Shown here piece after piece: positions 1,327 through 30,600 of a stretch of 64,000 bases of DNA. The notes below the pieces were generated by a model. That model searched no databases. It was not told the DNA's origin and was given only the letters and a program-made list of their open reading frames with translations. Source of the DNA: Narcine bancroftii (taxonomy: Eukaryota). A program made the position numbers and the translations under genes. Every line of letters starts with the position of its first letter. Within the stretch, counting starts at the first letter, position 1. The DNA lies in the NCBI RefSeq assembly GCF_036971445.1, contig NC_091478.1, forward strand, positions 88,536,001 through 88,600,000, written 5' to 3'.

Positions 1327-1668
1327 CCACCTTGGATGTGAAAGTCTTTCCAGCAGTGTTCAATGCCACAATTGGTGAAGAAGTCCTGCTAAATTGCTTA
1401 TTTTCTCAAACCATTGAGTTTGACTTGATGTACATTGTGATTGAATGGAACCAGAGAGCAGGAGATCATGAAAAGGCTATTTGTCTGTTGGACTTCGGGG
1501 AATATGAAAGCTACAGACCAGGATCAAGTCTCTTTCAAAATGAAATAAGCAAAGGAAATGCATCTTTACTCCTAAAAAATGTTACTGTGGATGACATTGG
1601 ATCATATTCCTGTATCGTTTCGCTATTTTCTGATAAAAATATGGGTAATGTTAATCTGTCAATTACAG
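1327..1668 (+). CDS. Exon: Ig V-set domain (B7/butyrophilin/tapasin-like)
   Basis: Acceptor ctgcag| at 1326 and donor G|gtgagt at 1669, phase 1-1. Motifs VLLNC, IEW and GNASLLLKNVTVDDIGSYSCIV. Four N-glycosylation sequons (NAT, NAS, NVT, NLS). Confidence 0.92.
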
Positions 1669-4600: not shown

Positions 4601-7600
4601 CACTAAGCCTGGCGCTGTGGTACAGAAGGGAAGGAAGAGGAATGCAGTGGTCATAGGGGACTCCATTGTCAGGAGTAAATACAAGGGATTCTGTGAGCCT
4701 GATAGATATACCCACATGGTATTTTGTCTCCCAGGTGCCAGGGTGTGAGATATCTCAAATCGGGTCCAGAGTATTCTGAGAACAGCCTGATGTCTTGGTA
4801 CTTGTGAGTACCAATGACATTGATTTTAAAAAAAAAGGGAGGAGGACATGAAAAGGAATTACAGTGTGTTAGGATGGAAGCTAAGAGACAAGACATTCAG
4901 GGTAGTGATCTGTGGATTGCTACCTGTGCCAAGTGCAAGTGGGGGCAAAAATGGAAGGATCAGACAGATGAATGGGTGGCTGAGGGGCTGGTGCAGAAGG
5001 AAGGGTTTCAGAATCTTAGACCATTGGGATCTCTTCAGGGGGAGGCATGACCTCTACAAGAAGGATGGGTTACACCTGAACCCAAAAGGGGTTAATAAGC
5101 AGGTGTGGTTTAAACTAATTTGGCTGGGGGATGGGAGCCTGAGTGATAGGGCAATGGATAGGAAAGAGAAAATAGGAAAAGTTCAGATAGGCAGTGAAAT
5201 TAAAAGGACAGAAGGAGCAGAAAGGGATTGGAGAGTATGGCCAAGTGCGTCAGGTAACAAGGTGAGAAATGTGGGGAGTGACAGATTAAAGGTATTGTAC
5301 ATGAACAAACGGAATATAAGAAATAAAATGGATGAGCTTGAGGCTCAACTGCATATTGGCGAGAATGATGTTATAGGAATAACAGAGACACCACTGCAGG
5401 AGGGCTGGGATTGGGAAATTAATATTCCAGGGTTTATGTCCTATCGAAGGGACAGACAGGTGGGTAGAGGGAGTGGAATGGATCTGTTGGTGAGGAATGA
5501 TTTTCAGTCCCTTGAAAGGAGTGACATAAAAGCAAGTGGAGTAGAGTCTGGAGAGAGTTGAGAAATTGCAAGGGCAAGAGGGCCATAATGGGAGTCATAT
5601 ACAAGCCCCCAAATGGTAGCTCGGATATTGGAGGCAGAATAAATCAGGAGTTAAGATTGGCATGTCAGAATGGCTATGATGCAGTTGTTATGGGAGATTT
5701 CAACATGCAGGTAGACTGGGAAAATCTAGCTGGTGCGGAACTGCAAGAAAGTGAGTTTATAGAATGTGTCCAGGATACATTTTTAGAGCAGCTCATGATG
5801 GACCCCACCAGAGGGAAGACAATTCGGGATGTGGTGTTGTATAACATAGAAACATAGAAGATAGGAGCAGGAGTAGGTCATTCGGCCCTTCGAGCCTGCT
5901 CCGCCATTCAATGAGATTATGGCTGATCTTAAAGTTCAGTACCCCGTCCCCGCCTTCTCTCTGTAACCCTTAATTCCCTTATACTGAAGAAATATATCTA
6001 ATTCCCTCTTAAATATATTCAATGAACCTGCCTCTACTGCTCTCTGTGGTAATGAATTCTACAGATTCACCACCCTCTGGGTAAAGAAATTTCTCCTCAT
6101 CTCGGTCCTAAATGTTTTGCCTATTATCCTCGAACCATGGCCCCGGGTTCTGGACTCCCCCACCATTGGAAACATCCCATCTGCATCCATTCTGTCCAGT
6201 CCTGCCAGAATTTTATATGTCTCTATGAGATCCCCTCTCATTCTTCTAAACTCCAGCGAGTACAATCCCAATTTGCGCAATCTTTCCTCATAAGTCATTC
6301 CTGCCATTCCAGGTATCAGCCTGGTGAATCGCCTCTGCGCTCCCTCCATTGCAAGAACATCCTTCCTCAGATAAGGTGACCAAAACTGCACACAATACTC
6401 CAGGTCTGGTCTCACCAGGGCTCTTTACAACTGCAGTAAGGTATCCTTGTTCCTAGACTCAAACCCTCTTGATATGAAGGCCAACATACCATTTGCTTTT
6501 TTAACCTCCTGCTGTACCTGCATACTCACCTTCAGAGACTGGTGCACAAGAACCCCTAGGTCTCTCTGCACTTCCCCATTTCCCAATCTATTGCCATTCA
6601 AATAGTAGTCTGCCCTCCGGTTTGTATTACCAAAGTGGATAACCTCACATTTATCCACATTGTAATGCATTTGCCATGTATCTGCCCAGTCCCCCAATTT
6701 ATCCAAATCACACTGGAGCTTCCTGACCCCCTCTTCAGTGCACACAACCCCTCCTGCAAATTTGGAGATCTTACGTCCAATCCCCTCATCTAGATCATTA
6801 ATGTGAATTGTGAACAGCTGGGGTCCCAGTACAGATCCCTGTGGCACCCCACCGGTCACCGCTTGCCAACAATGCGGATTTGATAAGGGATCTTGAAGTA
6901 GGGGAGCCATGAGGTAATAACGACCATAATATGGTAAGTTTTAATTTGCAATTTGAAAGGGAGAAGGAAAGAAAGTCAGAAATATGAGTACTACATTTGA
7001 ATAAAGGGGAATATGCAGCCATGAGGGAGGAGCTTGCCAAAATACAATGGAAGGATTCTCCCTGGCTGGGAGAACAATGGAACAAAAATGGCAGATATTT
7101 CTGGGCATTTTTCACAAGGTACAGGAGCAGTTCATTCCAAAGAGGAAGAAGGGTTCTAAGGTGAGCAAAGGGCAACTGTAGCTGACAAAGGAAGTCGAGA
7201 ACAGTATCAAGACCAAGGAGAGGAAGTATAATATAGCAAAGAGGAACCTTCAAAGAGCAACAGAAGATAACTAAGAAAGCTATACGATATTGCTTTAAGA
7301 TGAAGGATGGTGAGGGAGGGGGGGGGAAATAAAACGACACTGTATATATTTTAAAATGAAAATGTATGTATCTTGATCAATGTGGTTTATAGTGTGAAAA
7401 ATAAAAAAATAAAAAAAAAAGATGAAGGATGGTGAAAAAAATGAGAATGTCACTGTACATACTAATACCGAACATTACTGATGTGGTTCACGGTGAAATG
7501 TTAAATAAAAAAATTATAAAAATAATTTTAAAAAAGAAAATTATATCAAGAATGCTTATAAAGGGAGTACAATATTTACTCTACTTCTTTTGTCTTTGTA

Positions 7601-10600
7601 GCACCTCCTGTGGTTTCAATAAATACCGTAAATATTATTATGGAACCTGGAGAAGATAAAGTAATTATTTCTGTGATGCAAAACTTCTATCCGGAGAAAC
7701 TTTCTGTCTCTTGGTTAAAAAATAACTCAAAAGACAATGAAAGCCAAGTTAATATCACATCCCAAGCGGTTGCAGGAACACAACAACGAAATCAAGATGG
7801 GACATTTAACCTAATTTCATTCCTGATTATCAAAGGCAACAAAGGGGATGATGGAGTTTTTTATATCTGTCGAGTCACTCATGAAGCATTAAAAGTACCA
7901 ATACAAAAAGCTGTTGGGTTGACCATAAAGGGTGAGTTATAAAAGGGGAGAATGGTGTTGGTTTTTTCATGAGTCCCATTTATTTTCACTTTGGGAAATT
8001 TGATTTGAATTTTATGTAACTGAGCATAGACAGAGGGGGCATCATGAGAAGCAGACATCACTGAATCCCACGTACTTGAACAGAACTTTTAGCATTGTCG
8101 TGCCATGTTTCCCTTAAGATGAGAAGTCTTTGTAGTTTATTTGCGAAATGTTCACAAGATATTATAATAGAAAAGCTCTAATCTTTGACCTAATTTTATC
8201 AAAATTGTCTATGACAAGGCAGTGGTATCATATTTTCACTGCAAATATTAATACCATATCTGGATCACATGGTTTTTTAATTAATTCTGGTGTTCTTTTG
8301 TTAAAAAATACAATGAAACAATTATTTACTGTTATTACCTGACTGTTTTCAAAACTATGCTCAAAAATAATTAATATTTTGATTAATCAGATATCTGACA
8401 CAATGTAACCCCCATCAAGAACCAAGCTACATGCAGGATGTTAATGTAAAGTGGGCATGTTCTCCCCAGAGAAGGATGCATTTCGAGAAGAGTTGTCTTT
8501 CAAATGGGGGCATTAAATTGAGGTTTATGTTTCAAAAATCCCATGGCATAATTTTAAAGAAAATCTCAATGTCTCTTGGTGACTTGTTTATCCCTCTCTC
8601 AAAAGTTTCAAAAGTCCCAAAATTACTGCTCAATATCATGTTGCTGTTTGAAGTAGCTTGCTATGTTGAAAATTCTACATCTTCTGAATTAATTTTGAAG
8701 GTACAACATTGGCTGTAAAATGCTTTGAACTGTTCTAAAACAAGTGAATGTTCTAGAAAGTGAAAATTCTAGAAGTACGTTTCAAAAACTTCTGTGGGTT
8801 GTAGGTTAATTGGAGTATTTGGGCGGCTTGGGGGCTGGAAGGGCCTGTTACCATGCAATTTAAATTTTAAAAATTTAAATTTAAAAGATACCTTTCTGAT
8901 CTCCTGTCTGCACAATGTGAGGTACTGTCCCATTTCCTGGTGATGGTCCGGCAGAATTTACCCGCTTACCCCCACCCCGTTTTTTTTCGTCTGAACCAGC
9001 AAACTATTTTGGAGTGCAGGTCAGTGGGTCTCAACTTTCCTCAGTATCAGGCCCACCTGACTTGCGGCATAACATGCCATGGCCTGCTAGTGGCAATAAC
9101 TGAGCAATATTTTCATCAAAGGTAGGTCTGTAAATTTAAAATATTTTATTTAACATTTTTAAAGACCTACACAGAAACCCACTGGTTTAAAACCACTGAC
9201 TATGCAAAATTTATTAATTTAAGGGCTGGGAACACTTGAAGTGGCACAATAATCCTTCTACAATTCACTAGCTGTGTTTAGGATTGCTTAGATCTTCCTG
9301 AAGTCTCCTTGATCCTCACGGCATGAATCACAACAGCTGGGATTACTAGAGAAGGTGCCTCTGGAAGTAAAAATGCTAAGAATTGAACTTTGTAATGCAA
9401 GAATGCTGCCTCCAGCAGTAGTAGAGGGCTGTGGGTGTGAGGAAGGGAAAATTTATATTGTGGATTATATTGTAGGTTTACGTGAGTTGGAACAGCCTGT
9501 GCTGTTATGTTTTCTGTTTTACTCAAAGTCTGTTTCCTCAAAATTTACTAAACTTCAACTGTTCCTACACCATATTTCGAACATCTTCAGAAACATCAGC
9601 TGTTTATATAATATGCCTCTCTTTTGAAACATCCCATTGCACTTTACAACCAATCGTATGTTTGTTACATTGGAAGCAATGCTTCAAATTATGCTGTAAT
9701 TCAATTTTAAAATTTGCTTTTTGATTTCAAATGTTGTTCGGCTTACAGAAACTAATAATCTTGAATATTTTATTGACTTTTGTGTTTCTAGGCTCCACTC
9801 TAACTTCTAGATCAAGAATATTGTTCGCAGCTGTTGTGACCTTTCTGCTCACAGCAGTTATCTGCTATGGAACATGTGTTTTCTACAATCAAAGAACAGG
9901 TAAATAATAGAAGTCGTTAAACTTAATTTTGTGATGGGGTTGAGTTTTGTAAAGGTGCATTTCTTTCCCCGAGAAGTTAATAGTGTTCTGTCACTTTGAG
10001 CCATTTGCGGTCTCTATGGTGGTAATGTGATCCAATGGATGAGGTAGTCTACTTCAGCGATGTTGACCCTGTGACAGTGTTCCTTTGTAAAGACTTACTC
10101 ATCTCCCTGGTGTTTTGTTATAATGTTTTTATTTCTATGATATTCCGATACACATACTTTTCTAATTAGATTTGCATACCTAATGTATTTTAAGATGATG
10201 TCTCGTGCTTCGAGATCTTGACTGCTTTTCAGAAATTGACTTCAGTGGGATTGATTAAAAAGAAAAAGAATGCTGGAAATAATCAGCAGGTCAGGCCACG
10301 ATTTTTAGGAAGAAAATCTTTGGATCCTCAACTGGAATATTAGCCCTGTTTCTCTTTCTAAAGATGTGACTTGACCTGCTAAGTATTTCTCACATTTTCT
10401 GTTTTTATTTTAGATATCCAGCATCCACAATTTTTTTTTTAAATTTTCACCAAGATTGGTCATTGCCAACCAATCATATCGGAAGAGGAGCTTAAGTTAA
10501 AAATAAAGCAAGAGGATTAGTAAAATAAATGACAAATGATAGAGAAAATTATAATTGTAGCATTTTTTTGAAGTAATTCTGGTTTTTCTGTTTTACAGAT

Positions 10601-13600
10601 ACTCCCAGAGTGTCAAATATAATCATATCAAACTATTGGAATAAGGCCAATCCACTTTCTCTTACTTGTGCAGTTTTCTGGTTCAGACCAAAATCAATTG
10701 TCATCTCTTGGTCCAGAGGAGAAGTGGGTAAATTCCACAGGACCCTCATCAGTAAATGGGACAGCGCCTCACACTGTGCAGGCAAGAAAACAGAAAGTTA
10801 TTTTCAGAATGAACAGGGACAAGTTGAAAGAATGCCGTTCACGAGAGGAGAATATGATGTTGCAGTGTCTTTGAAAGATCACAAAGAATGTGGAATGCAC
10901 AGTTTAATATCTCAGCTCACATTCAGAGGTGAAAAAGTTGCAAAAAGAGAACAGGCTTATTATTTTGAAGTCTTGCATTATGCATTTGAGCAACCCATTT
11001 TAAAAACAGTTGTTGTAGAAATCAAAGGTAAGTTGCTTTTTTTTCCTATTGCATATAAATCTAAAGAAAATTAGAATTGTTTTAAACGATGCCAAAATAG
11101 GCATTGAAAAAGAAATAGAAACCTTTTGAGTATACACTGTGCCGTGCCATATATATCTTACAAATTATTGTGTGCAATCAATATTTAGCATTCGGTTGCT
11201 TAATTCATGTTAATCTTCTGTCAATTATTTTCTTTCCGCCTCTGACTCATTTACATACTTTGGGTAAATTAATGACCAAAGGAATAACAAACATAAAAAC
11301 AAAATTTGCTGAAAATATTCAAGAAATGAGGCAACATCTGTTTAATATTATAAATAATATTTTAGGTTCTATATTTGATCTTTATTCTCAGATAATCGAT
11401 TATAATTAGAGCTACTACACCACCTGTTTTCTGAATTGTACTGTTAACATTGTGGTAAACCACTGTCATGTATAATTATCTGGTCAGGCATACCTATTGG
11501 CCAGTTGTACCTGTAGCCCCTCTTCACAGACCCCTGTTACTCGGTACAGGACAACCGAACAGTAGGGATATGCTAAGTTCTCAAGTGAATAAAAGTCTAT
11601 TGGTTTTTCTACAGTAGTCTTCTGAGTAATTGATGGTGCATCAAACATTATGTAAATCCTGCACAAGAACATCCTGCTTCCCTCCCCTCTTCAAAGTTTC
11701 AATGTTCCCATTCGTTGATCATTTAAGAAATATTGTGTTTTTCTATGTGTACTATCACACTGGATAGCCTTACAAAATATTCCACTTATACATTTAACTG
11801 GTTTAATTGCAGAATCATAATATCTCACTCACAGATATCTTAATAATCAAGTGTATTATCACTTGGATACATTACACCAAATCCCATTATCTAAATAATT
11901 AATTATCAGTCATAAATACCTAAATCTTCAATACCAATCCTTGTAGAACCCACCAGAAAGAACTTGGATTGGATTAAATGGAAGTTGTATAGTTGTTCAG
12001 TATAACTTGATGAGAATAGTTGTGCAAAGTACTCTTGAGTGAATCATCTTATTGGAGAAAGAATCTCTAAAACAGGAAGGGCCTGTAACAGTGCTGTTTA
12101 TCTAAATAAATAACATTTTAAATAAAGGGTTAAAATTGTAAAGTAAATGTTCTCTGAAGCAACACACAACCCCTTGGGAGCCAACATTCAGCCAGCAGAG
12201 TCCCATGGTCATGCCCCACCCACAGCAGCTGTTTGAATAAAGTTGCGATAAAGTTGGATTTAAATAAAATGACGGCACCTCGGATGGAGAGCCGGCTGAT
12301 GCTGCTCGTCGCTGGGGTGGCTCTCCCAAAGTGTCTCCCTACCCCTGTCTCGTAAAGAATCTTTATTCATATTAGGTACATCTGGCTTTATCTGTAAACT
12401 TGGGGGAGTGCAGGTTAATTATGATGGTGGCATGGTTAGCTAGTGCTATGCTGTTACAGGGTCAGCGACTGGGGTTCAAATTTGAATTTTGTAAGTTAAG
12501 GGAATTACCTGATTAAAGTGAACTTTGCTTCATTAAAGATGATAATACTGACTTTTTTCCAAATTACTTTACATTTTGCACTGTCTTTTTGTCTTTTAAT
12601 CTGTGTATTCTTAATGCAAGTGTATTAGGCATTGGAACAGTGTATCTCAGTCAACCGGAAAATTCGCATATGCGGCATCCACGATCCCTGTACGTGCCGA
12701 ATAATGAGAATTCTACTGTATATGTTAACTTTATTTTTGATAAAATTTCTAACAGGTGATGATGACAGTATTGAATATTTTCCAACACAAGTAAAGCACA
12801 ATGATTGGGCAGTGCAGGCTATTGAAGAAGGACGGCGCACTGTGGTTAATTACATCAGTCCAAACATAGTTCCACTCTTAAATCTTTTAATGGAGCAGAG
12901 AATAATCTCCGAAGATGATCTCAGTGATGTAAAAGCTAAGCCAGACGTTGACAAAGGACGAACTCTTTTGGACATGATGAGTCACAAAGGAGAGCAGGCC
13001 AGTGCTCAATTTTTCAATGTACTACACGACACTGATTACCTTTATCCTGGCATCAGAAGATATATAACATCACTGATGGAACCCTACACTGAGAAAGGTG
13101 ATAGGCCAATTTTTGATCTACATGAAGACATACCAACTGTTTTATTTGAGTTTAATGATGAAAAAAACAGAATATCTAATATTTCTGAAGGTAAGTGTAA
13201 TTAGAATTAATGGGCATTTCTGTGTTTTAATAGTTCCATATCATTAGTATGTAAGCTCTGTAATATTCTACAATACATGCAAATACTGAAATTTGGATAT
13301 GGTTAATACCGTGGATTCAATTTGTTTATGTGGTTGAGGTGAGTATTTGCAGTTTTGAAATCTTCACATTCGGATGAGCAATTAAGCAGCACGAGGACAA
13401 CTTCTTCCCCTCTGCTGGGAGATTCCTGAATGAGCAATGAACCATAGACAGTCAGTTGCTTTTTTCTTTTTCTTGAACAATTTTTATTCATTTTGTCATG
13501 TGGTTCATATAAATATTTGCACTGTGATTTTCCTGGAAAACAATCCATTTTGTGACGTGTTCATGACCATTGATTCTGATTCTCATACGTTAAAACAAAA

Positions 13601-16600
13601 ATCAAACTTTAAATAGAAAAATTACAGCACAGAAACAGGCCATTTTGCCCCCTCTAGTCTGTGCCAAGCCACTTTTTCTTTCCTAGTCCCACTGACCTGC
13701 ACTCAGTTTATAACCCTCCATACCTCTCCCATCCATATGCCTATCCAAATTTCCCTTAAATGTTGAAATCAAGCCCACATTTGTGGAACAATTGTAGTGA
13801 GAGATCTCCAAACATAATCCTCAACCTCAGGACATAATCTCTCTGAAGGTGTTATCTTCTCCAGTCCCAATCACACCCCCCACCCCTCCCCCCCCAACAT
13901 TTTTCCATTGAGATCATTAAGTGTGTGATATCCTCTACTCACCATCAACAATCTTCCACCCCACTGCATGTACAATTGCACAAGTACACCAACTAGTTTT
14001 ACCAATTCCCCAGCTCCAAATGCCAATTTTATTATCTTCACGGATTACAAAGGTGGTGTCGGTTTAAGGAACTTTTTGGATTGGATTAAATGAAAGGTGC
14101 ATAGTTGTTCAGTATAAATTGATGAGAATAGTTGTCCAAAGTACTCTTGAGTGAATCATCTTCATGGAGAAAGAATCTCTAAAACTCTACAGTCTCTGAT
14201 GTTCCTTATTCTCAAGATGGAAATGTCAAATATAAAGAGTTTTAAGATGAGAGGGAGAATGTTTCAAGGAGATTTACAAGGCAAGATTTTTTTTTAATGC
14301 AATGCCTGGAACATGTTTCCCACAGGAGATGATGGAAGGAGATGTGATAGCAGCATTTAAACAGGCATGTGAACAGACCGGGAACAGAGGGATATAAACC
14401 ATGTGCAGGCAGATGTGCAATCTAATTGGCATCATAGGTTGAAAAGCTGTTTCTATGCTGTACTGCACTGTTCTATATTCTTGGCAGTGCCAGAGATGGT
14501 GGCAGTATCTGTTGGCACATCCACACATACTTTAGACAGTGAATGATTCATATGCCATTTGTTACCTTGTTTTTTATTGACTATAAAAGTACTTTAAAGG
14601 ACAGTTTTACACCAGTTTTTGATGAATTTATTCTAATCATGCACCCCAAATTATATTCCAGCAGAGGTTAGATTTTTAGTTGGAAATATTAACTGGATAT
14701 AATTTCTGCTTTAAAAGAAAATGAGAGCAATATCTTAAAAACTACCAGTGATATCAAGTATCCAGTTTGGTAAATTGATTTTTAAATAAAAAGTTCTTCC
14801 AATCACATTGAAAAGGTCCTCAAGATTATCATGATCCATTCTCCAAATCAGCCAGCTCTCCTGCCTTCTCCCCATTACCTTGGATTCTCTGACTATTCAG
14901 GTTCCGATCAATCTCTACCTAAAATACACCTACTGCCACGGCTGCCCATGGAGGAAAATTCCAGAGGTCCACCATTCTCTTGCTATATAAATTCATCCAG
15001 GTCTCTGTTATAAATGGGTACCCTTCAATCCTGAAGTTGTCCGGTCTTGTCCTCAACTCCTCTACCATGGGAAACAACTTTGCCATGTACTCTGCCCAGA
15101 ATTTTCAACATTCAAAGTGATTTTATGCTGTCCCCCCATCATTCTTCTGAACTCCAAGAGCCATCATACGTTTCTCAAGTGCATTATAATAATGTACTTC
15201 ATTCCAGCAATCAGTCTTGTAAATGTTCTCTGAACCCTCTCCAATGCCAGCACATCCTTTCTTAAATAAGGAGGCCAAAACTGTACCCTGTACTTCAAGT
15301 GAGGCCTCCCCAGAGCCTTACAAAAGCCTCAACTTTGCATCCCTGCTCTTGTATCTTATTCTTCTCAATATGAATATCAACCTTCCATTCACCTTCTTCA
15401 CCACCAACTCAACCTAGAGGTTAACCTTTTGGGTATTCTGCACCAGAATTCCTGTCCCTTTGCACTTCCAAATTTTGAATAATCTCCCCATCCAAATAAT
15501 AGTTTTCCCTTTTATTCCTTCTACCAAAGTGCATGATTGTTCACTTTCCAACAGTGCCTTTCATTTTTCTCTACTTTGTTCATTCTCCTAATTGATCTAA
15601 GTCTCTCTGCAGCCTCTCCATTTCCTCCTCGCTATCTATTCCTCCATCTACCTTTGCATCATCTGCAAACTTAGCCACAGCAATTTATTCCACATTCCAT
15701 ATCATTAATATACAACGTAAAAAGAAGTGGCCTCAACAATGACCCTTGCGGCAGACCCCTGTGGATCCCTTTATTCCTACTCTGTTTCCTGCCAACCGGC
15801 CAATGCTCTATCCTTACAAGCATATCTCCTGTAATTCCATAGGCCCTCATTTTGTGAAGCAGTCTCGTATGCGGTGCCTTTCGAAATTCCAATTATGTAG
15901 CATCCACTACATGTCCTTTTCCTGACTTGCTTGTGGTTTCCTCAAAAAAATTGCATTAGTTCTGTCAGGCAAGATTTTCCCTTAACAAATCCATGATGAT
16001 GTTGGCCTATCATGTCATGCATCTTCAGGAACTCCATAACCTCATCCTTGACAATCGACCAACAACTTCCCAACCACCAATGTTGGATTAACAGGTCTAC
16101 AATTTACTTTCTGCTGCTTCCCCTTCCATTTTAAATAGTGACGTGACCCTTGCAATTTCAAAATCATGCCCAAATCTATTGATTCTTGGAAAATCGTTTT
16201 TAATGCTTTACAATCTCTACATCTTTCAGAACCCAAAAGTGCATTCCATCTGGTCCAGGAGACCGATATACCCTTAGACTTTTCAGCTTCCCAAGCACCT
16301 TCTCTCTGGTGATCATGATTACTCATGCCTCTCTTCCCTGACACCCTTTGAATGTCCTGTATCCTGTTTATGTCTTCCACGGCAAAATACTCGTTCACTT
16401 CCTCTGCCATCTCCATGTCTCCCATTATAATTTCTCCAGTGTCATTTTCTATTGCCCATTCAGAGCCAGCTCTTCAGCGCTTGACGTCCTGCTTTGCGGA
16501 AACTGCCAAAATGTTTGGCCTGGAAGTCAGCCTGAAGAAAACTGAGGTCCTCCATCAGCCAGCTCCCCACCATGACTACCAGCCCCCCCACATCTCCATC

Positions 16601-19600
16601 GGGCACACAAAACTCAAAACGGTCAACCAGTTTACCTATCTCGGCTGCACCATTTCATCAGATGCAAGGATCGACAATGAGATAGACAACAGACTCGCCA
16701 AGGCAAATAGCGCCTTTGGAAGACTACACAAAAGAGTCTGGAAAAACAACCAACTGAAAAACCTCACAAAGATAAGCGTATACAGAGCCGTTGTCATACC
16801 CACACTCCTGTTCGGCTCCGAATCATGGGTCCTCTACCGGCACCACCTACGGCTCCTAGAACGCTTCCACCAGCGTTGTCTCCGCTCCATCCTCAACATC
16901 CATTGGAGTGCTTACATCCCTAACGTCGAAGTACTCGAGATGGCAGAGGTCGACAGCATCGAGTCCACGCTGCTGAAGATCCAGCTGCGCTGGATGGGTC
17001 ACGTCTCCAGAATGGAGGACCATCGCCTTCCCAAGATCGTGTTATATGGCGAGCTCTCCACTGGCCACCGTGACAGAGGTGCACCAAAGAAAAGGTACAA
17101 GGACTGCCTAAAGAAATCTCTTGGTGCCTGCCACATTGACCACCGCCATTGGGCTGATATCGCCTCAAACCGTGCATCTTGGCGCCTCACAGTTTGGCGG
17201 GCAGCAACCTCCTTTGAAGAAGACCGCAGAGCCCACCTCACTGACAAAAGGCAAAGGAGGAAAAACCCAACATCCAACCCCAACCAACCAATTTTCCCTT
17301 GCAACCGCTGCAATCGTGTCTGCCTGTCCCGCATCGGACTTGTCAGCCACAAACGAGCCTGCAGCTGACGTGGACTTTTTACCCCCTCCATAAATCTTCG
17401 TCCGCGAAGCCAAGCCAAAGAAAAAAAAGATATCTACTCTTGCCCATTTTTCACCCTTAATGTACTTTTATTAAAAAAAGTTAGTATTCTTTTTGATATT
17501 ATTTCCTTTCAAAATTAATCTTTTCTAATTATCTTTTTGGTTGCCTTCTGTATGATTTTGAAAGCTTCCCAGTCCTTTATCTTCCCACTAATTTTTGCTT
17601 CCATATATTCCATGGAACATATAGTTTCTATTGCTTTATTTATGTCGAAACCTCCATTGCCTATATTCCAATTATCTGTCTTCCAATAAAATCTTTGTTC
17701 TTGCAAGGCCACGTCTTGTGGCAAACATTGTCGTATCACCACAGGATAATTATTATTTCATTTCTCTGAGGTTGATTTAATTTTCATGATTTGTGCGGAA
17801 TGTTTTCACTGTGTTCCCATTGTTACCACTGTTCATTGTTCTGTCTTTTGTAATTACAGAAATTTCTGAAGCAGTGGCTAAACATAAACTCACATTAAAG
17901 GCACAAATGGAGAGAATAAAACCATACTTTGCATTTGATAACTCTAGACCATTGTTACTGGATCATTTTACCAACCTTGTTATCCTCAATGCCCGAGAAA
18001 GGAACAAAATAGAACACGAGCTGCTGCAGCACAGAGACTATACAGCATGCGAGCACATAGACATGAAGCACCTATTTTCACCTTCTGACCCTTGGAAACA
18101 ACTACCACGAGTCACTCTAGTGCAAGGAGTGGCAGGTATAGGAAAAAGTGTAATGATTCAGAAGCTCGCTCACAGTTGGGCATGTGGAACGCTGTACACT
18201 AGATTTTGTTTGTTGCTATATTTCAATTTCCGTGAGTTAAACACCATCACTAAGGAAATCAGTCTGACTGAGCTCATTACGTGTGCTTACCCTCATCTGA
18301 CAGCATCATGCAAAGAACTCCTGAAATTTCCTGCCAGAATTCTATTTTTACTTGATGGATTGGATGAATTCAAATGGTCTCTTGAATTTAATGTTCAATC
18401 AGTTGATGAACCATCCATTGCTCAACCCATCAACCATTTGATTGTAAGCATCATAAAGGGAGATCTTCTTCATGGCGCAACTGTTCTTGTCACATCCCGC
18501 CCAACATCCATTGACTTAGACCACAAAACCTATTTTGATCGATGTGTTGAAATATTAGGATTTTCCACAAGAGAAATCGCAGCATACTTTCGGAAGTGCC
18601 TCAAGGATAAAAAAGTTGCCAATCATGTCTTCCAAACTGTGAAGAGCATCGATTCCCTGTATGGGCTCTGCTATGTCCCAGCATTTTGTGACATCCTGTG
18701 CTTCTATCTCCATAAATCTTTTCGCTGCAAAGGCAAGTGGTCCAATCTGTCTTCATTTCCTCGGACTATCACTGATTTGTTTCTCCGATTCACCAAATGT
18801 TTACTGGTGCAGACCAAGGATGAGGAAGAAAACCCTGAGTCCTTCTGCATAGAAGACAGTCAAGATAGAAATGAAATTCTTAACTTGGCACGACTTGCAT
18901 GGGATGGAATCATCAATAAAGTTATAATATTTTCACCTGAAGACATTGAAAGGAACATCTCTCAAAAGGGCAAAACAACAAATGCCTTCTGGAAGAAAAT
19001 TCTCACCAAAGAGAGCATGGAATTGATGCATTCTCACATTTGGCAGTTTTTCCATTTGACTCATCAGGAATTTTTTGCAGCACTCTATTGTACTTCTGGC
19101 GTGGATCATGTGCACCAAGCCTTCAATTCAAAGAGCAACACATTTGAGTTTGTGTTGAGGTTCACAGCTGGACTAATCTCTCACAGCAACAGAAAACTTG
19201 TCAAACAGTTGATGCCTGAACATCAAGTTGAAGAGAGAGAGGTCTTTTTGGCCATTGAAAATGCTGCTGCTGTTGATGTTCCAAAAGAAGACCTCCTGAC
19301 ACCTGAAAATGTCAAAAAATACACATCACACAAAAGACAAAAACTAATAGCCTCTCATTGTTTGCATGAAGCAGCAAATAAAGATCTAACAAAACTAGTT
19401 GCTGCCAAAACCAGTGATATTGTAAATTTTTCTTATATATCTTTGAATGTGACCGACTGCACAGTGATTGGAAACCTTCTTTCACATCACACAACTATTG
19501 AAACTCTGGAACTGGATGGGTGCAAAGCTGGAGCTTCAGGTTTACAAAGATTGGAGTCTGTGTTCTCTAGAGTCAAAACACTGAGGTATTGAAGTTTTAT

Positions 19601-22600
19601 TGTGTTTCTTTAGGCTGTGCAATTCAATCTGAAATATAGTAAAACCCCTGTTATCCGAAATTCAAGCAATTAGCAAAAAAATTGCAGAAAGTAAATAGGT
19701 AAAAAATATGAAAGTTTAAAACTTTTTAACAATTGTGCAACATTCAATTTCAGGCAACCGGAAAATTCACTTATACAGCATCTACCAATTCTCCATAGGT
19801 GCCAAATACTAGGGATTGTACTGTAAAAAGGTTAAGTAGGTATTTCATACAAATTGTGTGATCTCTAATTTTATGTTCAGATTAGTGTCTGATGCACTAA
19901 TACCCAGCAATGCCCAATGTCATCCAACAGCGGGGAATGCATACTGGGTCACCTGCAATTTTGCCTCTGTATGCCACATGTTGGTTACGTGTGTAGAAAC
20001 AGATCATCATTGTGAGTCAATGTTGCATCAATGGAATTTGCCTGAATATATGGAAGCTGCCTTTAGTCATAGAGTCATAGCATCATACTTCAAAAAAAAG
20101 CAGGCCATTCAGCCCAACATCCATGTCAACCAGTGGTCACCCATCACCTAGCACTTAACCCATAGCTTTGTGTACCTAAGCAATTTAAGTACTCATCCAG
20201 ATGTTTCTTAAATGCTAGTAAAAACATAGAAATACTGGAGGAACTCAGCAGGCTCACAGCATCCATAGGAGGAAAAGATAGATCAGGAGTGACCAAACCA
20301 TGGCTCATGAGTCACATATAGCCCTTTGACATATAATGTGCAGCTCGCAAAGCTCCTGATGCCCCGACTGCGGACATGTTACACCCTAGTTCCCAAAGCC
20401 CTAGCCCCCTTCCCATCCGAGCTCCCAAAGCCCCAACTGTGGACACTCACCTAAGCCCTGGCTGCCCGCCCATCCAAGCTCCATGCAACCTGATTATGAA
20501 TTCTCACCTAGGCCCTGGCTGCTTGCCCATCTGAGCTCCCAACACCCTGACCACCTTCCCATCCAAGCTCCTGACACCCAAACCATGGAATCTCGCATAG
20601 GCCCTGGCCACCAGCCCAACCAAGTTCCCGATGCTCTGAATGACACAGGTACTTCCCGCGGTCAAAAGTAGTAGACACCCTAAATTTTACCCTAAAGATT
20701 GGTCCACAAATTCAGCAATTACATCCATATATATGGTATGTGTACTTTTTGATTATTGAAACTAATACAAATTAGCATTTTAAAAACTACATACATTAAT
20801 AAATATTATATACATGTATTTCTTAATATTTATATAAAATTTTTGTAACAAAATGTACATGTAGGAGTAAAACATATAATATTTTTTCATGCCTTACGGT
20901 TCTCAAACATCTGAAATATATTGTGGTTGTTGCGTTAAGCAACTTTGGCCACCGCTGTCTTAGATATAAAAATTTCTTAAATGCTCTCAGCCACGTAGCA
21001 TCAATCATTCTCTCAGTGCATTCTCAGTGCTTGCATCTCTCTAAGGCTGCTCTTGTATCCACTTAATTTCCTTCTGTACTCCAAATCCATATCCCCTAGT
21101 TTTATCTACCTCTGAAATAGGGGAAAAGTTCTTGCAGTCTGCCTTATCTTTACCCATTAGAATTCAGTGTACATCAATCATGTCCCTTCTTAACCTTGTC
21201 TGCTTTGGGGGGAAGAGACCTGTTTGCTTCAGTCTCTCCGCAAAACTGAACCGCTCTATCCCAGGAATTGAATCTCCACTGCACCCTCTTTGGCTCCATC
21301 ACATCCTTTGAGCACCGAACGTATCAGCACTCCCTCAGGCACATCTGACACATACATCCCCTTTCCCTGTCCTCACTGGTGTGAACACTGTCCCATTATC
21401 CCTCCACAGCTTTTCTGACACTCCAACCCCATTGCTTGTCCCCTGACCTGACAACCTGGTCCCAACCCAGTGACCTCTATCACAGCCATCCCATCCTGAT
21501 TACTGACACCCCAATACTCCAGCAGCCACCCATCCTTCAATCTTGTTCCTAAACTGCTCCTTTGGACCAGGCCTACCTCCTCCAAAAATATCATATCCAA
21601 GATGCATCCTCCCAATATTACCTTCATCGCTTCAACTTGAGTTTTTATTTGCATCCAAGATAAATATTTTTGATCTTTTTTTTTTTTAACTTCATAAGGA
21701 TTGGAATATTGATGCAAATTCTTCCTGTTAGAATTGAATAATGAACAAGAGGCAATAAATTATAATCTTTAAGCTATGGAAAACTATCTGCACACCATCA
21801 ATAGGATTATGAATTATAGATATACAGCACGGTAACAGGCCCTTTCAGCCCATGAACCCATGCCGCCCAATTACACCCAATTGGCCTACAACCTCCGGTA
21901 CATTTTGCAGGAAACCAGAGCCCCCAGGGAAAATCAGTGATTATAATTCAATCATCATTGATTGAAATGTATATTCATTGTTCACATTGGGCACCAAATG
22001 ATAATTATTGTTTCATTTGTATGGACAGTTTAGAGGGGAACATGCTGAAGGACGAAGGAGCAGAGTTGATTGCAAATGCACTGAAAATTGAGACGTGTAA
22101 AATAGAAACCTTGAGGTAAAACTTCCACGTGTTTTCCATATTTGTGTACATTTAGATTGATAAAGGATTGGGCTTTTATTTTTAAAAATTAGTACACTCG
22201 TAAAATTTAAAATGAACAAAGAATTTATAGTTGTATGAAACTAGAACATGAAAGGATGTGGAATAATGAATAAAAATAGGCTTAAAGTTTCACTGCTTAA
22301 ATGTAGCAAGTTATGAGTTCATTAGCTCCGAGCTATTGCCTCATAAACATGTTTTAAAATTCTTAACATAAACATGGAGATTGTGATCCTTTTAATTGTG
22401 AAAAATTATTGTTGTCATTTTATAGTATTGTGATTAATACTGTGACGTAATGAACATTGGGAGGTGTTACATTTGGTGATGTGAAACATAAAAATTGGTG
22501 GATAGAATCGTACAATTATACTGTATTGAAATGGGCCATTTAGCTCAATTAGTTCATTATCTCCAGAGGATGTGCATTGCCCAGCTCTTGTCCTAAAGCT

Positions 22601-25600
22601 TTGCGTTCCTGAACAATTCAAGTGTTCATCCAGATCCTTCTCGAATGCTGACCGCAATCCACCATCATCTATTCTTTCAGACAGTGCTTTCTAGGTGCTC
22701 ACCACTCTCTGGGTGAAGAAGGTTCATATCCCCTGTAAATATCATCCTCTATGTTCTCTAGTTGTGTCCACATCTGCTGAAGGAAAACACAACAGTCCAC
22801 CCTATCTCTCCCTATCACTTTTATATACTTCTACCTTGTCCCTTCTAGACCTCTTCAGTTCTGGGGAGAATAGACCCTGCCTCTCCAGATGTTCCTCATA
22901 ACTGAACTGCATTATCCCTGGCAAAATTCAGGTGAATCTCCTCTGCATCCTAAATCTATATATTCTGAGGTAAGTAGCATATGAATTGAACATTAAAGAG
23001 ATTTTTTTGAAAAAAATTAGTTATTAATCATGATAAATCATACAATAAAGATACAAACAAATAAAACATAATACATACATGATATTTTTAACCCTTAAAA
23101 CCCCCCTACCCTAACCCACCCACCCACCCCTCCCAACCCCACTCAAAACTACCCCAAAAGAAAGGGGGGAAAGAAAGGAGATCAATTAACATAGCACTCT
23201 TCAATTATTTGCCATGGTTTGGAGCAACATCATCAATGCCTGGGAAAATGATTAATAATTCAATCCCATATATTCCAAATACGGGCTCCAGGTTTTAACA
23301 AAAAAGGAATAATTATTGCGTAAATTATATGTTATCTTTTCCAACGGAATACAAGATCTCTTTTCCAAATGCCATTACTGAATACTCAAATTACTCTCAT
23401 TTTTCCAAGTAGTTGCCAAACATTTACCAGCCACAGCCAAAGCCAATCTCAAAATAGCAATTTGAAATTTATTTAATTTTAACTCCAAACTCAATTTCTT
23501 AATATAACCCAATAAAAGTACCAAAGGATCAAGTGAAATTTTGAATTTAAAAACAGCTTTTAAAAGTTTCTTAAATTTACGCCAAAAAGGTTTCACCGTC
23601 TCATATAGCCAAGTAGAATGTAAAAAAGAACCAAATCAGAAGAGATAAACTTATATTTCCTTAATTTCTCTGGAGTTAAGTATAACTGATGAAGAAAATT
23701 ATAATGAACAAATCTATATCTTACATTTACAATTTTAGTCATACTCCCCTCACACAAGTTCATCCAATCATCCTGAGAAATAGATGTGGACAGGGCCCTG
23801 ATCACTTCTCGCATTCTAGACAGAAAGTCTTAAAATCAATTCTCTGTCCTGATAACGCAAACATCTGATCAAAATAGAATTTGGAGCTTGACCAGGAAGT
23901 AGCTTCCTTCTTATTGCTCAGTTGGATCTATCCAATTCCAGATCATTCGAGAAATATGCTATTCCCAAAACCTTGGGAATCCCCTTCTGAAAAAACTGAA
24001 CTGGGTCCAGACCTTCAAAATCTTCTGGAAGATCACCGATTTTCACATTATTTCTCCGACTCTGATTTTCCAAAGCATCAGTCTTCTTCAACAAATCACT
24101 TTTCTGAATTTCCCAACCAGTAAATGAATCGTCCATCTGTCCCATCCTTTCTTTACATTGGTCCACATCATCTTTACAATCAATAAATTCTTCTTCAATC
24201 TTCTTAAATTTATCCTGAACCTTATCCACTGCTTTGAAACATTTTGCCACATCCATTTTAATATAAGATATTTCCCCCTTCATTTCAGCAAATTGTTCCT
24301 TCATAACTGAAAATCCTTGACTCATTTGAACAGCCATGTTCTCCATTTGTTTAAACAAATCAATAGATAAAGTTGGTTCTGAAGGGTGAGGATCAGAGTT
24401 TAAAGTTTGCCTCACCATGGGCCTACCCTTATAGATAACTGTATTCTCCTCCTCCTTAAGTTGTTCCTCCTCTTCTTCCAGTCTAGCAATGTCCACCTAT
24501 TCCTCCTCCGTCAACATGGAGGTTGCCTCGACCTGAATATGGGCACAGACCCCACCCCCACCCCCGTCAGTCCAGGGAGGTCAGGTCTCCCCGCATCCTG
24601 GGCCATATCGGGTGTAGTGCGCTTGCGCAAAGTTTCATGCATGCGCAGTTGTTCGACTTGATCGGGAGGAGGTCACCATCGGGCACCGGCACCATCTTCC
24701 GCAGCAATGCGTGAAGTCGGCGCTGGTGTAGTATGCACCTTACCAAAGAACTGGCGTTGCTGTCTAGTCTGAGAAGAAATTGAGTCCAGAGGCTCCACCT
24801 GCAAGGTAGGCTGAGATTCTTCAGTAATTGTTAACTGTTTAATAGCCATTTTCTTTGCTGGTTGAGCTTTAGTTTTCCTCATAGCTGCTTGTAGAGTACT
24901 TCAACAGTATAATCAACAAGTTCTAAAAATATTTTTAAAACTTTAAAACAGGTTTTGAATAGAAACATAGAAAATAGGTGTAGGAGTAGGCTATTTGGCC
25001 CTTCAAGCCTACACCGCCATTCATTATGATCACGGCTGATCAGTACCCGGTTCCTGGCTTCTCCCCATACTCCCTAATCCCCTTGACCACAAGGGCCAAA
25101 TCTAACCTACACTTAAATATTGACAGGGAACCGGCCTCAACTATTTCCTGTGGCAAAGAATTCCACACATTTTCCACTCTCTGAGAGAAGAAATTTTTCC
25201 TCATCTCAGTCCTAAAAAACTTCCCCCTTATCCTTAAACTATGGCGCCTGGTTCTGGTTTTTTCCCAGCATTGGAAACAACCTTCCTGCGTCTAGTCTGT
25301 CTAAACCCTTAAGAATTTTATAAGTTTCTAAGATCCCCCCTCAATCTTCTAAATTCCAGAGAATACAAGTCTAGTCTATCCAACCTTTCTTCATATGCAA
25401 GTCCCTCCGTCCCTGGTATCAGCCGAGTGAACCTTCTCTGCACCCCCTCCAAGGCAAGGATATCCTTCCTCAGATAAAGTGACCAAAACTGCATGCAGTA
25501 CTCCAGGTGTGGTCTCAACAAGGCCCTGTACAGCTGCAGCAGGATCTCCCTACTCCTGTACTCAAATCCTCTCACTATGAACGCCAACATACCATTCGCC

Positions 25601-27568
25601 TTCCTCACTGCCTGCTGCACCTGCACGCCCACTTTCAATGACTGATGCACAGCAAGACCCAAGTCTCGCTGCATCTCCCCTTTTCCTAAACAGATACCAT
25701 TTAATAGTTCTGCCAGTTCTCCCTACACCATCGCGCCACACCTACCAAAGATTGCCTAATGAGGAATATATCCAACCAAGTTGTCATTAAAGTGAAGGTG
25801 ATGATTCAGATGATGCACAATTGCATTTGGATATCATCGAAATCCAGATCTGTGTTGTAAATAATACAGCAACACAATCGCTGGAATCTTCTTTGCAGGT
25901 TGAAGCACAATTCCATCGGTGAGAAAGGGGCAGCACAAATTGCAGAAGCTTTGAAAACAAACAGCAGGCTGGAAGTACTGGGGTATGTATTAAACCAACT
26001 TGTCGACTTCTTTGGAGCTCTCCTAAATAGTGGCAAGTTCTATTTATAGGATACATTAAATATAGAAGGATGCTTCAAAAAGTTTCATGCAAGCATTAAC
26101 GAGCAAAAATTGAAATGGAACCACAAAAGGAGAAGTTAGGTCAAATTTTGATCAAAAAGGTGGATTTTAAGGAATATTTGTTTTTAAAGAAGGAAGAAGA
26201 GAGGTGATAAGGTTGAGGAAGGAAACCCTAGAGAGGAATTAAAGTACCACACCACAGAGGAGACGCTGGCAGCGAAATAGCATTGTGTAGTGAGCCACTG
26301 TTACAGAGGTAGAAATAAGCATTCTTAACAATTAATACACATTGGTGCAATGTATATTTATGTATTTTTTCATTTTGTTTTGACATGTGCAAGGGGTTGA
26401 TGGCAAAGAAAGAATTTGTGATGGAACTAAGATGAAGGTTTCAGCCTTTTCACTTTTTATTTTGAGAAACTTTCTGCTTATTCAATACTAGATGCCAAAC
26501 AAGGGACTTAGAAACTGTGATGTGCTCAAGAGTGCTGAGAAGGGGCTAGATGCCATCATTATAGATTTGGAAACAGATGCTTGATGTAGAAAACTGTTGC
26601 TTAAGGAATGCTTGTAGATGGGAAATAGAAGTGGCCAAGGACAGATTATTGGGAGACACCAGTTCGCAACGCAGGAGAGAGAAGCCATTGCTGGTGATGC
26701 TATAGAGACCATTGGAAAAGTAACATGAGAATCAGACAATGCAGGTCCCACCCAACAGTACAAAGATGAGGGTGTGGTATCAAAGGGCTGTAAAAGATGA
26801 GGAGGGAGAGGTTACCTTGATCACATTCACCTGCGATGCCAATACTAATTTTAAAAATTCAATCACATTGTTCTCTAAAATCTTTGAAGAAAGAAATGTG
26901 GGGCAAGACTAGAGGTAAATGACATTGCAGCTGCAGAAGTTGTATTACTGATATCTCCCTAATTTTATCTATGTCACCTTGCCTTCATTAGGTTGCGAGC
27001 AAATGTTGTCGAAGCCAAAGGTGCCAAGTTATTGGCTGAGGCCCTGGAAATCAATTCCACACTGAGAGTTCTTGGGTATGTTGCTCTTTTTCCCTTTTCC
27101 TGTTTACACGCGATAGTTTGCCAGATTACAGAAGTTCAGGGCAGCACTTTTATAACTTGTTTTAAAAACTCCATTGTTCCTAGATATTGGGCAACAAAAA
27201 TTTTCATTGTAGCTTGTGCTATCCATGTTAAAAAGTGTTTTCAGTTTTGTATTTTATTACGTGACCTAAATTAACTGAGATCAAAATGTAAGCTCGTGTA
27301 CTCATCTCTAATTAAAGTCACAATTCCATCATCAATCAATTAATAATAGAACTACCATATTTGACAGCATACAGGACCCCACCCTCTTTTTCCCAAAAGA
27401 ATCACCTCAAAAACCACCACTATATGCAAAGGTGACTTTTTGATGCCACTATTTTTCAAGAACCTGGCAGGAGGAAAGTGCTCAAACTACTCACCCGTGC
27501 TTTCCGGAGTTGCCATCGCTCTCTTCCCCTGGTAGGAAGGCTCACTCTCTCCCTCCTTCCCACCCGCC

Positions 27569-27602
<34 letters not shown>

Positions 27603-30600
27603 CTTCCTCCCTCTTGTCGCTCACTCTCTCCCACAGTGGTTTGAGGGGAGCACTTTGTTCAGCAAGCAGAGCTCCCTGAACAGATTGAATGAAGCACAGG
27701 GGTAGATGGCAATGAGCAAGCAGCTTGCTCGGGGGTCCCGTTGCTCGCTCCCTCTCTCCCTTGCTATCTCCCACAGTGCTTTGAGGAGAGTGCTGGGCCT
27801 CAATGATTAGGCTCATCAACAAAGCCTGATCATTGAGGTCCAGTGCTCCCCTCAAAGCACTGTAGGAGAGAGCGATTGATGAGAGGGAGGGAGCAAGCGA
27901 TGGAACCACTGAGCAAATTGAATGAGGTAAATACACTATGTGACAGATTATGTTGTGTTTGTATTGTATATAGATATTTTTTTGGAGATAAATTGGGGCA
28001 GGTTTCTTAGTGTAGGTCACATACAAACACTTCAAAACAGATCTCATTTAAAATACTGGAGTTCCGCTCAAGCCAGATAGGGCGGCTCCTGGGGGCCTTG
28101 CAAAAACTTTGGGGAGTGCCCAAGAGACTTCACTAATGAATTATTGTTTTGAAAAGCAACGGATGAAAGAGATGAGAGGAGTAGTTCAGAGCAGCAGTCT
28201 GCTTGGGAGTGCAGCTTGCTGTTCTAAGAGGCCATATGGTTTTGCAAGTAGAGTGAGAGAGAGAGATCGATCAGTTCTGCAGTTATTACAGTCAGCAGCA
28301 ACAGCTGGGACTGGAACAGGACAAGCTGGAAGGCTTGAGGAAAAACCCCATTTGGAAGACGGGTTGAGAATGTTTAGTTCAGCCTGGTCAAAGCCCTTGT
28401 GGTCCTTACAAGTGGAGAGGACTGGCTGCCTAATGTTTCACTTGAAATAAGGGAAACAAAAAGGAACTCTGTGGTGACCTGAAAGAAAGAGGTTATCATC
28501 TGGAAAACTCTGATGGAACAAGTTTCTTCGGCAAGACACTGATGTGGCTGATTAAAAGGGATCAGTTTGTGTCTAGGAACAACAAATCTCTCTCTGAAAA
28601 CCAACAAGAACCTTCCTGAGCGGTAACCATTTACCTTTCAAGCACCAAAGCCTGGTGAACTTTATAAATGTTAAATCCTGTGCACAGTATAAGAATTGCC
28701 TGCAACAAGTAAACTTGCAAGAATGAGAAGTGAGATTGGACTGTGAATCAATTAACTTCTCTAAACTTACACACACATTACATACATGTGCGCTTAAGGG
28801 GGTTAGTTAAGTTAATAGTGATAAGTTAAAGTGTGATTCTGTTTTCATGTTTAAAGATAATTAAAAGCAACTTTTGTTTAAGTATCCATTTGTCTTGGTG
28901 AATATCTATTGCTGCTGGGTTTTGGGTCCTGTGGGCTCATAACAACTAAAACAATTTTTTACTGAAATCTCACACTAAAAATGGGGGGTGAGGGCCGGCA
29001 GTGGGGTTCTTGTATGCTGTCAAATACAGTTGTGCCTTAGATTTGCTGAAATATATTATCTAAAAGTCCATAAATTGTGCAAGATCTCCATCATGTGCTC
29101 ATATCTTTGTATGGGACAGACCACCTGGCTGAGCATATTACTCTCATGGACTCTCCCTGCTAGGAGTTCCCTCTGGAAAATTCCAGAATATACAGCATTT
29201 TGATGGAAGTTGCTGAGCGGAACAGAGGCATACTAATCTTCATGAAGAGGAGAGTGGGTCAAATTGGTATCCTCATGGAAAACCATTTGACAAAAATTGA
29301 GGATGGTGTTTTCCAGGGCAAACCTTTGCCACGGGGAAACAGGCATAGGTACACCTAAGATCCATTGTTGCATGAATCATGATTGATGTCATTCTATTCA
29401 CAAGGCCCATGCAACAAGTTTCAAGGTGCAAATTTTGTCAGGATGAATCTGGAGGGAGTGATCATAGGTGAATGGAAGGAACTCTATGGCCATGAAACCA
29501 TTTCCTGTTGACTGTGCTTTTTAACATGGAAACGCCCAATGAAAGCTCACTGAATGGGTTCAGCTAAGAACACAGATCAATTTTGCTCAACAATTTGATT
29601 CCTCACAACCAATGCCTATACCTGATTCCATATAATTTATTTGACTTCTGAGAAAAACGCAATGATGTTTCTGCCTCTCTTTATCTTGAGCTATCTGGGG
29701 AATTTTTGTTTTAAAATGAACAATAATGTATTTTTATTCCTTTGGACTAACTCAGCCTACAATGTAACAAGATAGGCGACCAAGGCGCAATGTACATGGC
29801 ACAAGCAATTGAAAGAAATCGTAGTTTGGTTGAATTACGGTATGGATTAAATCTGAGATCTCACATTAAAACTTCTCCCAGCTTCCCCCTTGCATGCACA
29901 CTCACCTGCAATAATTTTTAAACTCTTAGTGCATTTTTGTTGATTTTTTTTTCCCTTTAATTAAGGGTTTGTGAGCTGTTCCATGTCTTTTTTATCCACT
30001 CTTCAACTGACAGTTCCCTTCTTTTTCAACAGTTGCTGCATGTCATGTATCCTCAGTAATAAACTCCCTGGAGTTTGCTTTCCATTTTCATGTTAAGTGC
30101 CATGTTTAATTCTCTTCCCATCTGATGGATGATCTTGTCTAATCTCTAATCCTCTTTGTTTTAGTTTAATTTATCTCTCTGCAATTTATTTGTGCTAATG
30201 TGGTAATGGCTTCTTTATACCTTTATTTTTCTTCTTGAGAGTACTCTTCCCCTTTCTCTAATCTCATTACATTATGATCAGAACTGATATCTGTCTGCTC
30301 TTTACCCTCTCCCTTTGTAACCTATCATTTTATTTCTCACTCCTTCTGTCTCCTTTCTCTTGACAGCCACAGCCTTTTAAAATTAGACATCAGTTTATCA
30401 TTGGTTTGGATCTTCTGTTGATAAGAGAACAGCCCATCTCAGCATGACCATTCTTCCAGCATATAGCCAGGAAGAATGTTACACTAGGAGGCTGGCTTCC
30501 TCACAGTGCACTTAGGGCCTCTCTGCTCATAAGTGGCCAAATCACTGTGAGGCTTGACCCTTTGCTCACTGGCAGTACAAGCTCTCATTGAAACTGGTTA

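Follow-up and report, generated by a model that had tools for sequence, protein, structure and literature searches.

Gene layout and conservation

We analyzed a window of 64,000 nucleotides from Narcine bancroftii (NC_091478.1; the window is the whole stretch of DNA, and coordinates refer to its + strand). It carries a gene with the domain order signal peptide, IgV, C1, transmembrane (TM) segment, C1, CARD, NACHT, and LRR, as read from RefSeq isoform X1 mapped on the window together with Pfam. The subject of this study is the second C1-like domain, here called the post-TM domain. Its exon (10599-11027) identically matches, in a protein database search, RefSeq models of Narcine bancroftii named "NLRC3-like"; RefSeq labels the gene "NLRC3-like" or "NOD1-like". 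A first-pass annotation of these letters had described the domain as an immunoglobulin (Ig) C1-like domain on the cytoplasmic side of the membrane that had lost its disulfide. The evidence below makes it very likely that the domain is indeed a cytosolic, disulfide-free Ig fold. The features of the gene are as follows.

1327..1668, + strand: IgV exon, first domain of the B7-family-like ectodomain (Pfam V-set, exon map)
7602..7931, + strand: pre-TM C1-set exon (Pfam C1-set E 1e-11; exon map; spliced contigs with no other letters)
9792..9899, + strand: transmembrane exon (hydropathy 1.85-2.63 across 12 orthologs; spliced in 4/4 runs)
10599..11027, + strand: post-TM C1-set-like domain exon (splice sites, transcripts, predicted fold, 37-record comparison)
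12756..13190, + strand: CARD exon (Pfam CARD E 2e-8; ICEBERG, NOD1, and caspase-1 CARD matches)
17860..19585, + strand: NACHT-WHD-HD2 exon (Pfam NACHT E 2e-36; CARD-NACHT joint in 4/4 runs)
22029..33420, + strand: six LRR and terminal exons, at 22029-22115, 25899-25982, 26992-27075, 29756-29839, 32188-32271, and 33336-33420 (RefSeq protein mapped on the window; Pfam LRR_6)

When the N-terminal 549 residues were used as query, 18 proteins were found. Fourteen of these records, from 12 sharks and rays, have the signal-IgV-C1-TM-C1-(CARD)-NACHT-LRR layout (two of them without the CARD), and the other four are other Ig proteins. The whole architecture, with an intact CARD, was common to all 12 orthologs searched. 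With cluster members included, the set grew to 37 protein records, in which at least 17 named shark and ray species are represented. The post-TM C1 exon was present in 37 of these records, the TM segment in 36, and the CARD in 35; the post-TM domain was never lost or swapped. Conservation was highest in the NACHT and LRR parts of the protein (84%). A nurse-shark ortholog deposited as "NCR3 ligand (B7H6)" (QTT61908.1) has the whole architecture and is 67% identical over 1306 positions, and through this entry the gene is already on public record. NCBI gives the Cetorhinus ortholog the name PLEKHF1 isoform X1, a hint that PLEKHF1 is a neighbor of the gene.

The signal-peptide exon lies upstream of 1327, outside the window, and the N-terminus is signal-like in 12/12 orthologs. 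A PDB sequence search with the IgV domain and ectodomain found B7-H3, B7-H4, PD-L1, and B7-H6. Human B7-H6 was the best match of the ectodomain (91 bits, E 6e-25, residues 20-222), with a small margin over B7-H3 (85 bits). In the TM helix, Thr262, Thr266, Cys270, and Thr273 lie on one face and are invariant in 12/12 orthologs; as judged from the sequence, this stripe suggests helix packing and may be an oligomerization or acylation motif. The post-TM domain starts about 6 residues past the TM segment and ends about 20 residues before the CARD. The NACHT, LRR_6, and CARD matches all score above Pfam cut-offs, so a NACHT domain, C-terminal LRRs, and a CARD are all present; the Walker A, Walker B, sensor-1, and WHD motifs are intact in the NACHT exon and conserved in 12/12 orthologs. 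The best PDB match of the NACHT domain is NLRP3 (157 bits), and the nearest PDB sequences of the CARD are ICEBERG (E 1e-5), NOD1 (0.002), and caspase-1 (0.04), which do not fix its CARD partner. The gene differs from the plan of a soluble NLR with an N-terminal effector, in that its CARD comes after a signal-like N-terminus, a pair of Ig domains, and a TM segment.

The post-TM exon and its transcripts

The post-TM exon has canonical AG/GT ends, is in phase 1 at both, and holds one open frame of 143 codons. The C1 hallmarks reported by the first-pass annotation are readily found in it, as LTC-x4-FRP-x2-I-x3-W and Y-Y-F-E-V-L-H. The B-strand Cys is retained and, as the annotation had also recorded, the F-strand Cys is replaced by Phe (TTT at 10964-10966). 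This codon is one base from TGT; a recent change or a sequencing error was ruled out, as Phe is found at this position in 37/37 records, which is more than chance would give. A canonical B-F disulfide is therefore impossible in the post-TM domain. In the 12 orthologs, C23, F28, W37, V124, and H126 (the B-strand Cys, the C-strand Trp, and the F-x-P and x-V-x-H motifs) are invariant, and invariant positions amount to 21/142, including the F-strand Phe and two Trp that are atypical of C1 domains. The counts given in the annotation were likewise reproduced: the distance from the conserved Trp to the E-strand Gly is 60 residues, versus 28 in the pre-TM C1 domain, and there are no N-x-S/T sequons, versus seven in the two pre-TM domains (4 + 3). 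The long insertion is kept in 12/12 orthologs, at about 61-66 residues, which is beyond chance; column conservation is slightly lower in this loop (0.69) than elsewhere in the domain (0.75-0.82). Gene models of Mustelus repeat part of the beginning of the post-TM exon (about 34 residues).

The pre-TM C1 domain of Narcine has itself lost one of its two Cys. Its B-strand Cys is Ser (TCT at 7670-7672) in Narcine only, with Cys in 11/12 orthologs, and the transcript contigs agree with this reading; the domain is therefore also without a disulfide in this species.

The transcript evidence consists of contigs of four runs from one study over 7570-19650, which are presumed to derive from RNA, a status not on record; the joints covered run from the pre-TM C1 exon to the NACHT exon. 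In three of the four runs, the C1, TM, post-TM C1, CARD, and NACHT exons were spliced on one contig with no other letters, and in the fourth the same order was recovered on two overlapping contigs, again with no other letters. Thus, 4/4 runs show the post-TM exon joined in frame to the TM exon on one side and to the CARD exon on the other, in line with the annotation, which had placed it after the TM exon. Because contigs drop rare variants, minor exon skipping in Narcine may escape detection. Exact skipping of the CARD exon, joining the post-TM domain to NACHT, is annotated in Narcine (X4) and Pristiophorus (X2). The two introns on either side of this skippable exon each hold one copy (11964-12073 and 14076-14185) of a 110-nt direct repeat, and the copies are 94% identical.

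Predicted fold of the post-TM domain

To describe the fold, we used an AlphaFold2 model built from a 20-sequence alignment, which is a predicted, not a solved, structure. The post-TM domain was modeled as a beta-sandwich (predicted local distance difference test [pLDDT] score, 77; predicted template modeling score, 0.74) whose strands follow the ABED/CFG layout of the C1-set. The model also places one additional strand (47-54) and a segment of low confidence (59-82) between strands C and D. Foldseek searches with the model returned Fab, MHC, and TAPBPR chains. VIA-align ranked the B7-H6 C domain first (Z 12.8; root mean square deviation, 2.1; 97 residues aligned), but C domains of Ig light chains and HLA-DP came within 1 Z of it, in effect a tie. 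Structure prediction, which the first-pass annotation had proposed as a check, thus yields a C1-set Ig fold. By sequence, the Pfam C1-set match (PF07654) stayed below the cut-off (13.2 bits versus 21; E 0.12; residues 16-40 only), and the C1-set assignment therefore rests on the model; a single-sequence PDB search was also weak (best E 0.018). A homodimer prediction scored 0.00, in a run where the alignment was not used, and weighs neither way. Matches in the ESM Atlas were only to bacterial Ig-like clusters, below 0.9, and were set aside.

Side of the membrane

A signal peptide and one TM segment followed by an intact NACHT domain give a cytosolic C-terminus by established membrane-protein biogenesis. 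The gene fits this pattern: its N-terminus is signal-like, it has one TM exon, and the NACHT that follows is intact, so that the post-TM domain likely lies in the cytosol. This is a stronger argument than the asymmetry in cysteines and sequons within the gene, which the first-pass annotation had taken as independent support for a type I topology. The topology it proposed stands as likely, and the loss of the disulfide stands outright; the within-gene asymmetry does not amount to independent proof. As to sequons, their absence from the post-TM domain is at chance level (P(0)=0.48 by shuffling), 8/12 orthologs have at least one there (11 observed versus 8.1 expected overall), and the sequon density of the NACHT-LRR part equals that of the pre-TM C1 domain (1.57 versus 1.59 per 100 aa). 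As to cysteines, the loss of one Cys from the Narcine pre-TM C1 domain leaves an argument that holds only family-wide.

To extend the comparison, we counted cysteines and sequons in the B7-H6-like family described below and in the NLR-fusion orthologs; in these 30 proteins together, 166 domains were found, three truncated ones being dropped. Among 18 family proteins, both Cys are kept in 18/18 pre-TM domains versus 53/121 post-TM domains (Fisher p 2e-6, the domains not being independent), and in 3/18 first post-TM domains. In the NLR-fusion orthologs, both Cys are kept in 11/12 pre-TM and 0/12 post-TM domains. Sequons in the family number 50 observed versus 31.7 expected before the TM segment and 81 versus 72 after it. 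The asymmetry across the membrane is thus real at the family level and weak within the Narcine gene.

Origin of the post-TM domain

Against 1.84 billion representatives, HMMER found 13 proteins in all: the Narcine-type gene itself, two Ig heavy-chain-like proteins, one unrelated repeat protein, and nine multi-C1 proteins with C1 repeats after the TM segment. The nine belong to reedfish, coelacanth, lungfish, caecilian, Xenopus, and sawshark, and a profile search extended the family to bichir, turtle, frogs, and geckos. Most of these proteins are named "uncharacterized"; in four geckos the name is NCR3LG1. Family members have a V-C1-TM-(C1)n layout in which 2-13 repeats follow the TM segment, and the Pfam matches listed for them include neither CARD nor NACHT; the sawshark has both gene types, the C1-array and the NLR fusion. 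The long insertion and a second Trp are common to juxtamembrane repeats, with a median of about 51 residues in the first post-TM domains. The similar Cys-poor C1 domains that the annotation had suggested looking for in other vertebrates have counterparts in the post-TM repeats of this ancient family, from bichirs to geckos. In some frog members, repeats with and without cysteines alternate.

When family profiles were run on the Narcine post-TM domain, those of second post-TM repeats scored 57 bits, first post-TM repeats 49, the family pre-TM C1 29, and the gene's own pre-TM C1 25. In line with this ranking, a tree of 64 domains and 89 columns, with the insertion and F-Cys columns dropped, no human sequence included, and the bootstrap not settled, grouped the post-TM domain with second post-TM repeats (80/92) and made the Narcine-type pre-TM C1 sister to the pre-TM C1 of the C1-array family (96/96). 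On the basis of these comparisons, the post-TM domain was probably inherited from the post-TM array of the family. An ancestral B7-H6-like gene with a cytosolic tail of C1 repeats would have fused to a CARD-NACHT-LRR gene, through the phase-1 intron after the first retained C1 repeat.

Other elements of the window

Broken gag/pol-like frames at 34788-38990 and 54720-57927 are, from their translations, presumably of the long terminal repeat retrotransposon type. The stretch 16352-17430, in the CARD-NACHT intron, has very high multi-copy depth in four runs. We take it to be a remnant like a long interspersed nuclear element (LINE), as we do other LINE-like fragments at 4.2-7.4 kb, and we assume that a fragment at 48032-48532 is DDE/Harbinger-type transposase-like.

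Discussion

The data establish that the post-TM exon is included in a B7-H6-like/NLR gene conserved in sharks and rays and that its F-strand Cys is lost; the C1-set fold is predicted. We see the exon as a constitutive part of this gene and tentatively favor the reading that its product, likely in the cytoplasm, would serve as a rigid link. With the same caution, the domain may be viewed as a structural coupler in outside-in signaling. An NKp30-family receptor or another ligand would cluster the ectodomain, and the TM helices together with the post-TM domain would carry this clustering inward as a rigid coupler. Clustering would then favor nucleotide exchange and NACHT oligomerization, after which the CARDs would recruit a CARD partner (caspase-1/ASC-like or RIPK2-like), while the CARD-less isoform may dampen or redirect the output. 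A bolder version, which we regard as doubtful, would have an ancestral B7-H6 with an intracellular array of C1 domains, a type usually seen as extracellular and linked to adaptive immunity. One copy would have fused to a full NLR in the ancestor of sharks and rays, giving a vertebrate receptor in which engagement of a B7 ligand by a natural killer (NK) cell receptor directly triggers an inflammasome- or nodosome-like membrane platform via the disulfide-free C1 domain.

Several observations weigh against this account. All of the transcript evidence comes from contigs of that one study, with RNA status presumed, and isoform X5, a predicted Mustelus model, omits the 144 residues of the pre-TM C1 and TM exons, so that IgV runs straight into the Cys-less C1 domain. 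Conservation is lowest in the post-TM domain (64%, versus 70-84% in the rest of the protein). Against the positive-inside rule, 10/12 orthologs carry more net positive charge ahead of the TM segment than behind it, and in the other two the charge is equal; in the B7-H6-like family, 14/18 proteins obey the rule. The nearest repeat class, the second post-TM repeats, keeps both Cys in 7/7, and loss of Cys is therefore not a domain-by-domain marker of location. On origin, the branch of the post-TM domain in the tree is long, and approximately unbiased tests (30 rows) fail to reject either a duplication of the gene's own pre-TM C1 domain (p 0.225) or descent from a first post-TM repeat (p 0.47). 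Finally, human B7-H6 is matched far better by a gecko family member than by the Narcine ectodomain (137 bits versus 91), so NKp30 binding of the latter is not to be assumed.

Some of these points bear on other explanations. If the hydrophobic segment were no stop-transfer helix, or if TM-skipped forms dominated, the post-TM domain would not be cytosolic; the moderate TM hydropathy, the reversed charge bias, the sequons in 8/12 orthologs, and the TM-less isoform model are in its favor. It would, however, place an intact NACHT ATPase and a CARD in the lumen, the sequons are near chance, and the TM segment is present in 36/37 records and 4/4 runs, which makes this very improbable. TM skipping, under which the first-pass annotation would have withdrawn its topology, is seen in one of 37 records, the predicted Mustelus isoform. 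The low identity of the domain, lowest of all, and its phase 1-1 exon, easily carried along, could also mean that it is a passive remnant of the fusion breakpoint, a filler for length or solubility only. This is improbable given that it is intact in 37 records although clean skipping would be possible, and that its invariant positions include the Phe and the two atypical Trp. As the fastest-evolving part of the protein, the domain might instead be an integrated decoy or tripwire, with loop 59-82 luring a protease or kinase, of host or pathogen origin, whose cleavage or modification of it would release or activate CARD-NACHT-LRR. The loop is of low confidence in the model and of variable length; Ser/Thr and acidic residues abound in it, and 11/12 orthologs have a Tyr there. 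Yet a long insertion in this position is an ancestral trait, found in family members without an NLR, the loop columns are only modestly less conserved than the rest, and the domain has not been lost or swapped in any record, so that we consider a decoy role quite improbable.

The direction of signaling could also be the reverse. Inside-out signaling is an existing model for butyrophilins. By analogy, NACHT-LRR would sense cytosolic danger and the C1 domain would relay this outward, clustering or exposing the ectodomain to NK or T cells. The NACHT and LRR parts are the most conserved, as expected of a sensor, and a CARD-less isoform that keeps the ectodomain, the C1 domain, and NACHT-LRR is annotated in two distant species. 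B7-H6 is itself an NKp30 ligand (PMC3817299). The intact CARD in 12/12 orthologs, however, points to an inward output, and we regard inside-out signaling as unlikely.

The gene is significant in that one polypeptide, conserved in sharks and rays, links an NK-ligand-type ectodomain to CARD-NACHT-LRR, which makes "reverse signaling" by B7-H6 and NLR activation by membrane clustering directly testable by cross-linking. The gene also draws attention to a family with little annotation, ranging from bichirs to geckos, whose C1-set repeats follow the TM segment; these repeats would be natural, stable C1 folds without disulfides, of relevance to Ig-domain evolution and intrabody design. The component parts are known, and the nurse-shark gene is recorded as B7H6. 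In the literature searched, neither the elasmobranch architecture nor cytosolic C1 arrays in B7-H6 are described, although primary comparative work on B7H6 and NKp30 may describe them. The excerpts of PMC12227049, PMC6514059, PMC10751288, and PMC11599192 contain no passage on a B7-H6-like/CARD-NACHT-LRR architecture; those of PMC8455134 list whale-shark NLRs, under older accessions that could not be paired with the ortholog, and mention no Ig or TM fusion, and those of PMC12436146 do not mention sharks. Putative membrane-bound NLRs in sponges are noted in an excerpt of PMC12909245.

Among known systems, B7-H6 (NCR3LG1) shares the IgV-C1-TM ectodomain with the Narcine gene, human B7-H6 being its best PDB match. 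The tails differ: that of human B7-H6 carries ITIM, SH2, and SH3 motifs (PMC3817299), whereas the Narcine-type tail is C1-CARD-NACHT-LRR. The V-C1-TM-(C1)n family is alike in its post-TM C1 repeats, frequent Cys loss, and long juxtamembrane insertion, but has 2-13 repeats and no NLR, where the Narcine-type gene has one repeat and then the NLR. In sea cucumber, membrane-anchored proteins combining Ig, TM, and NACHT are reported: AjNLRC4 (PMC8699970), with Ig, two TM segments, and NACHT and without CARD or LRR, and AjNLR-new (PMC13133943), with two TM segments, an intracellular Ig domain, and an extracellular NACHT domain. The Narcine gene does not match the AjNLRC4 type, having one TM exon after the signal and both CARD and LRR. 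We infer that the sea cucumber proteins and the Narcine-type gene arose independently. Butyrophilins likewise combine a B7-like IgV-IgC-TM part with a cytosolic recognition module, but that module is B30.2 behind a coiled coil, in contrast to C1-CARD-NACHT-LRR in the Narcine-type gene. NLRC-type receptors such as NOD1 share CARD-NACHT-LRR with intact nucleotide-binding motifs, whereas the CARD of the Narcine-type gene lies internally and is attached to a type I membrane anchor.

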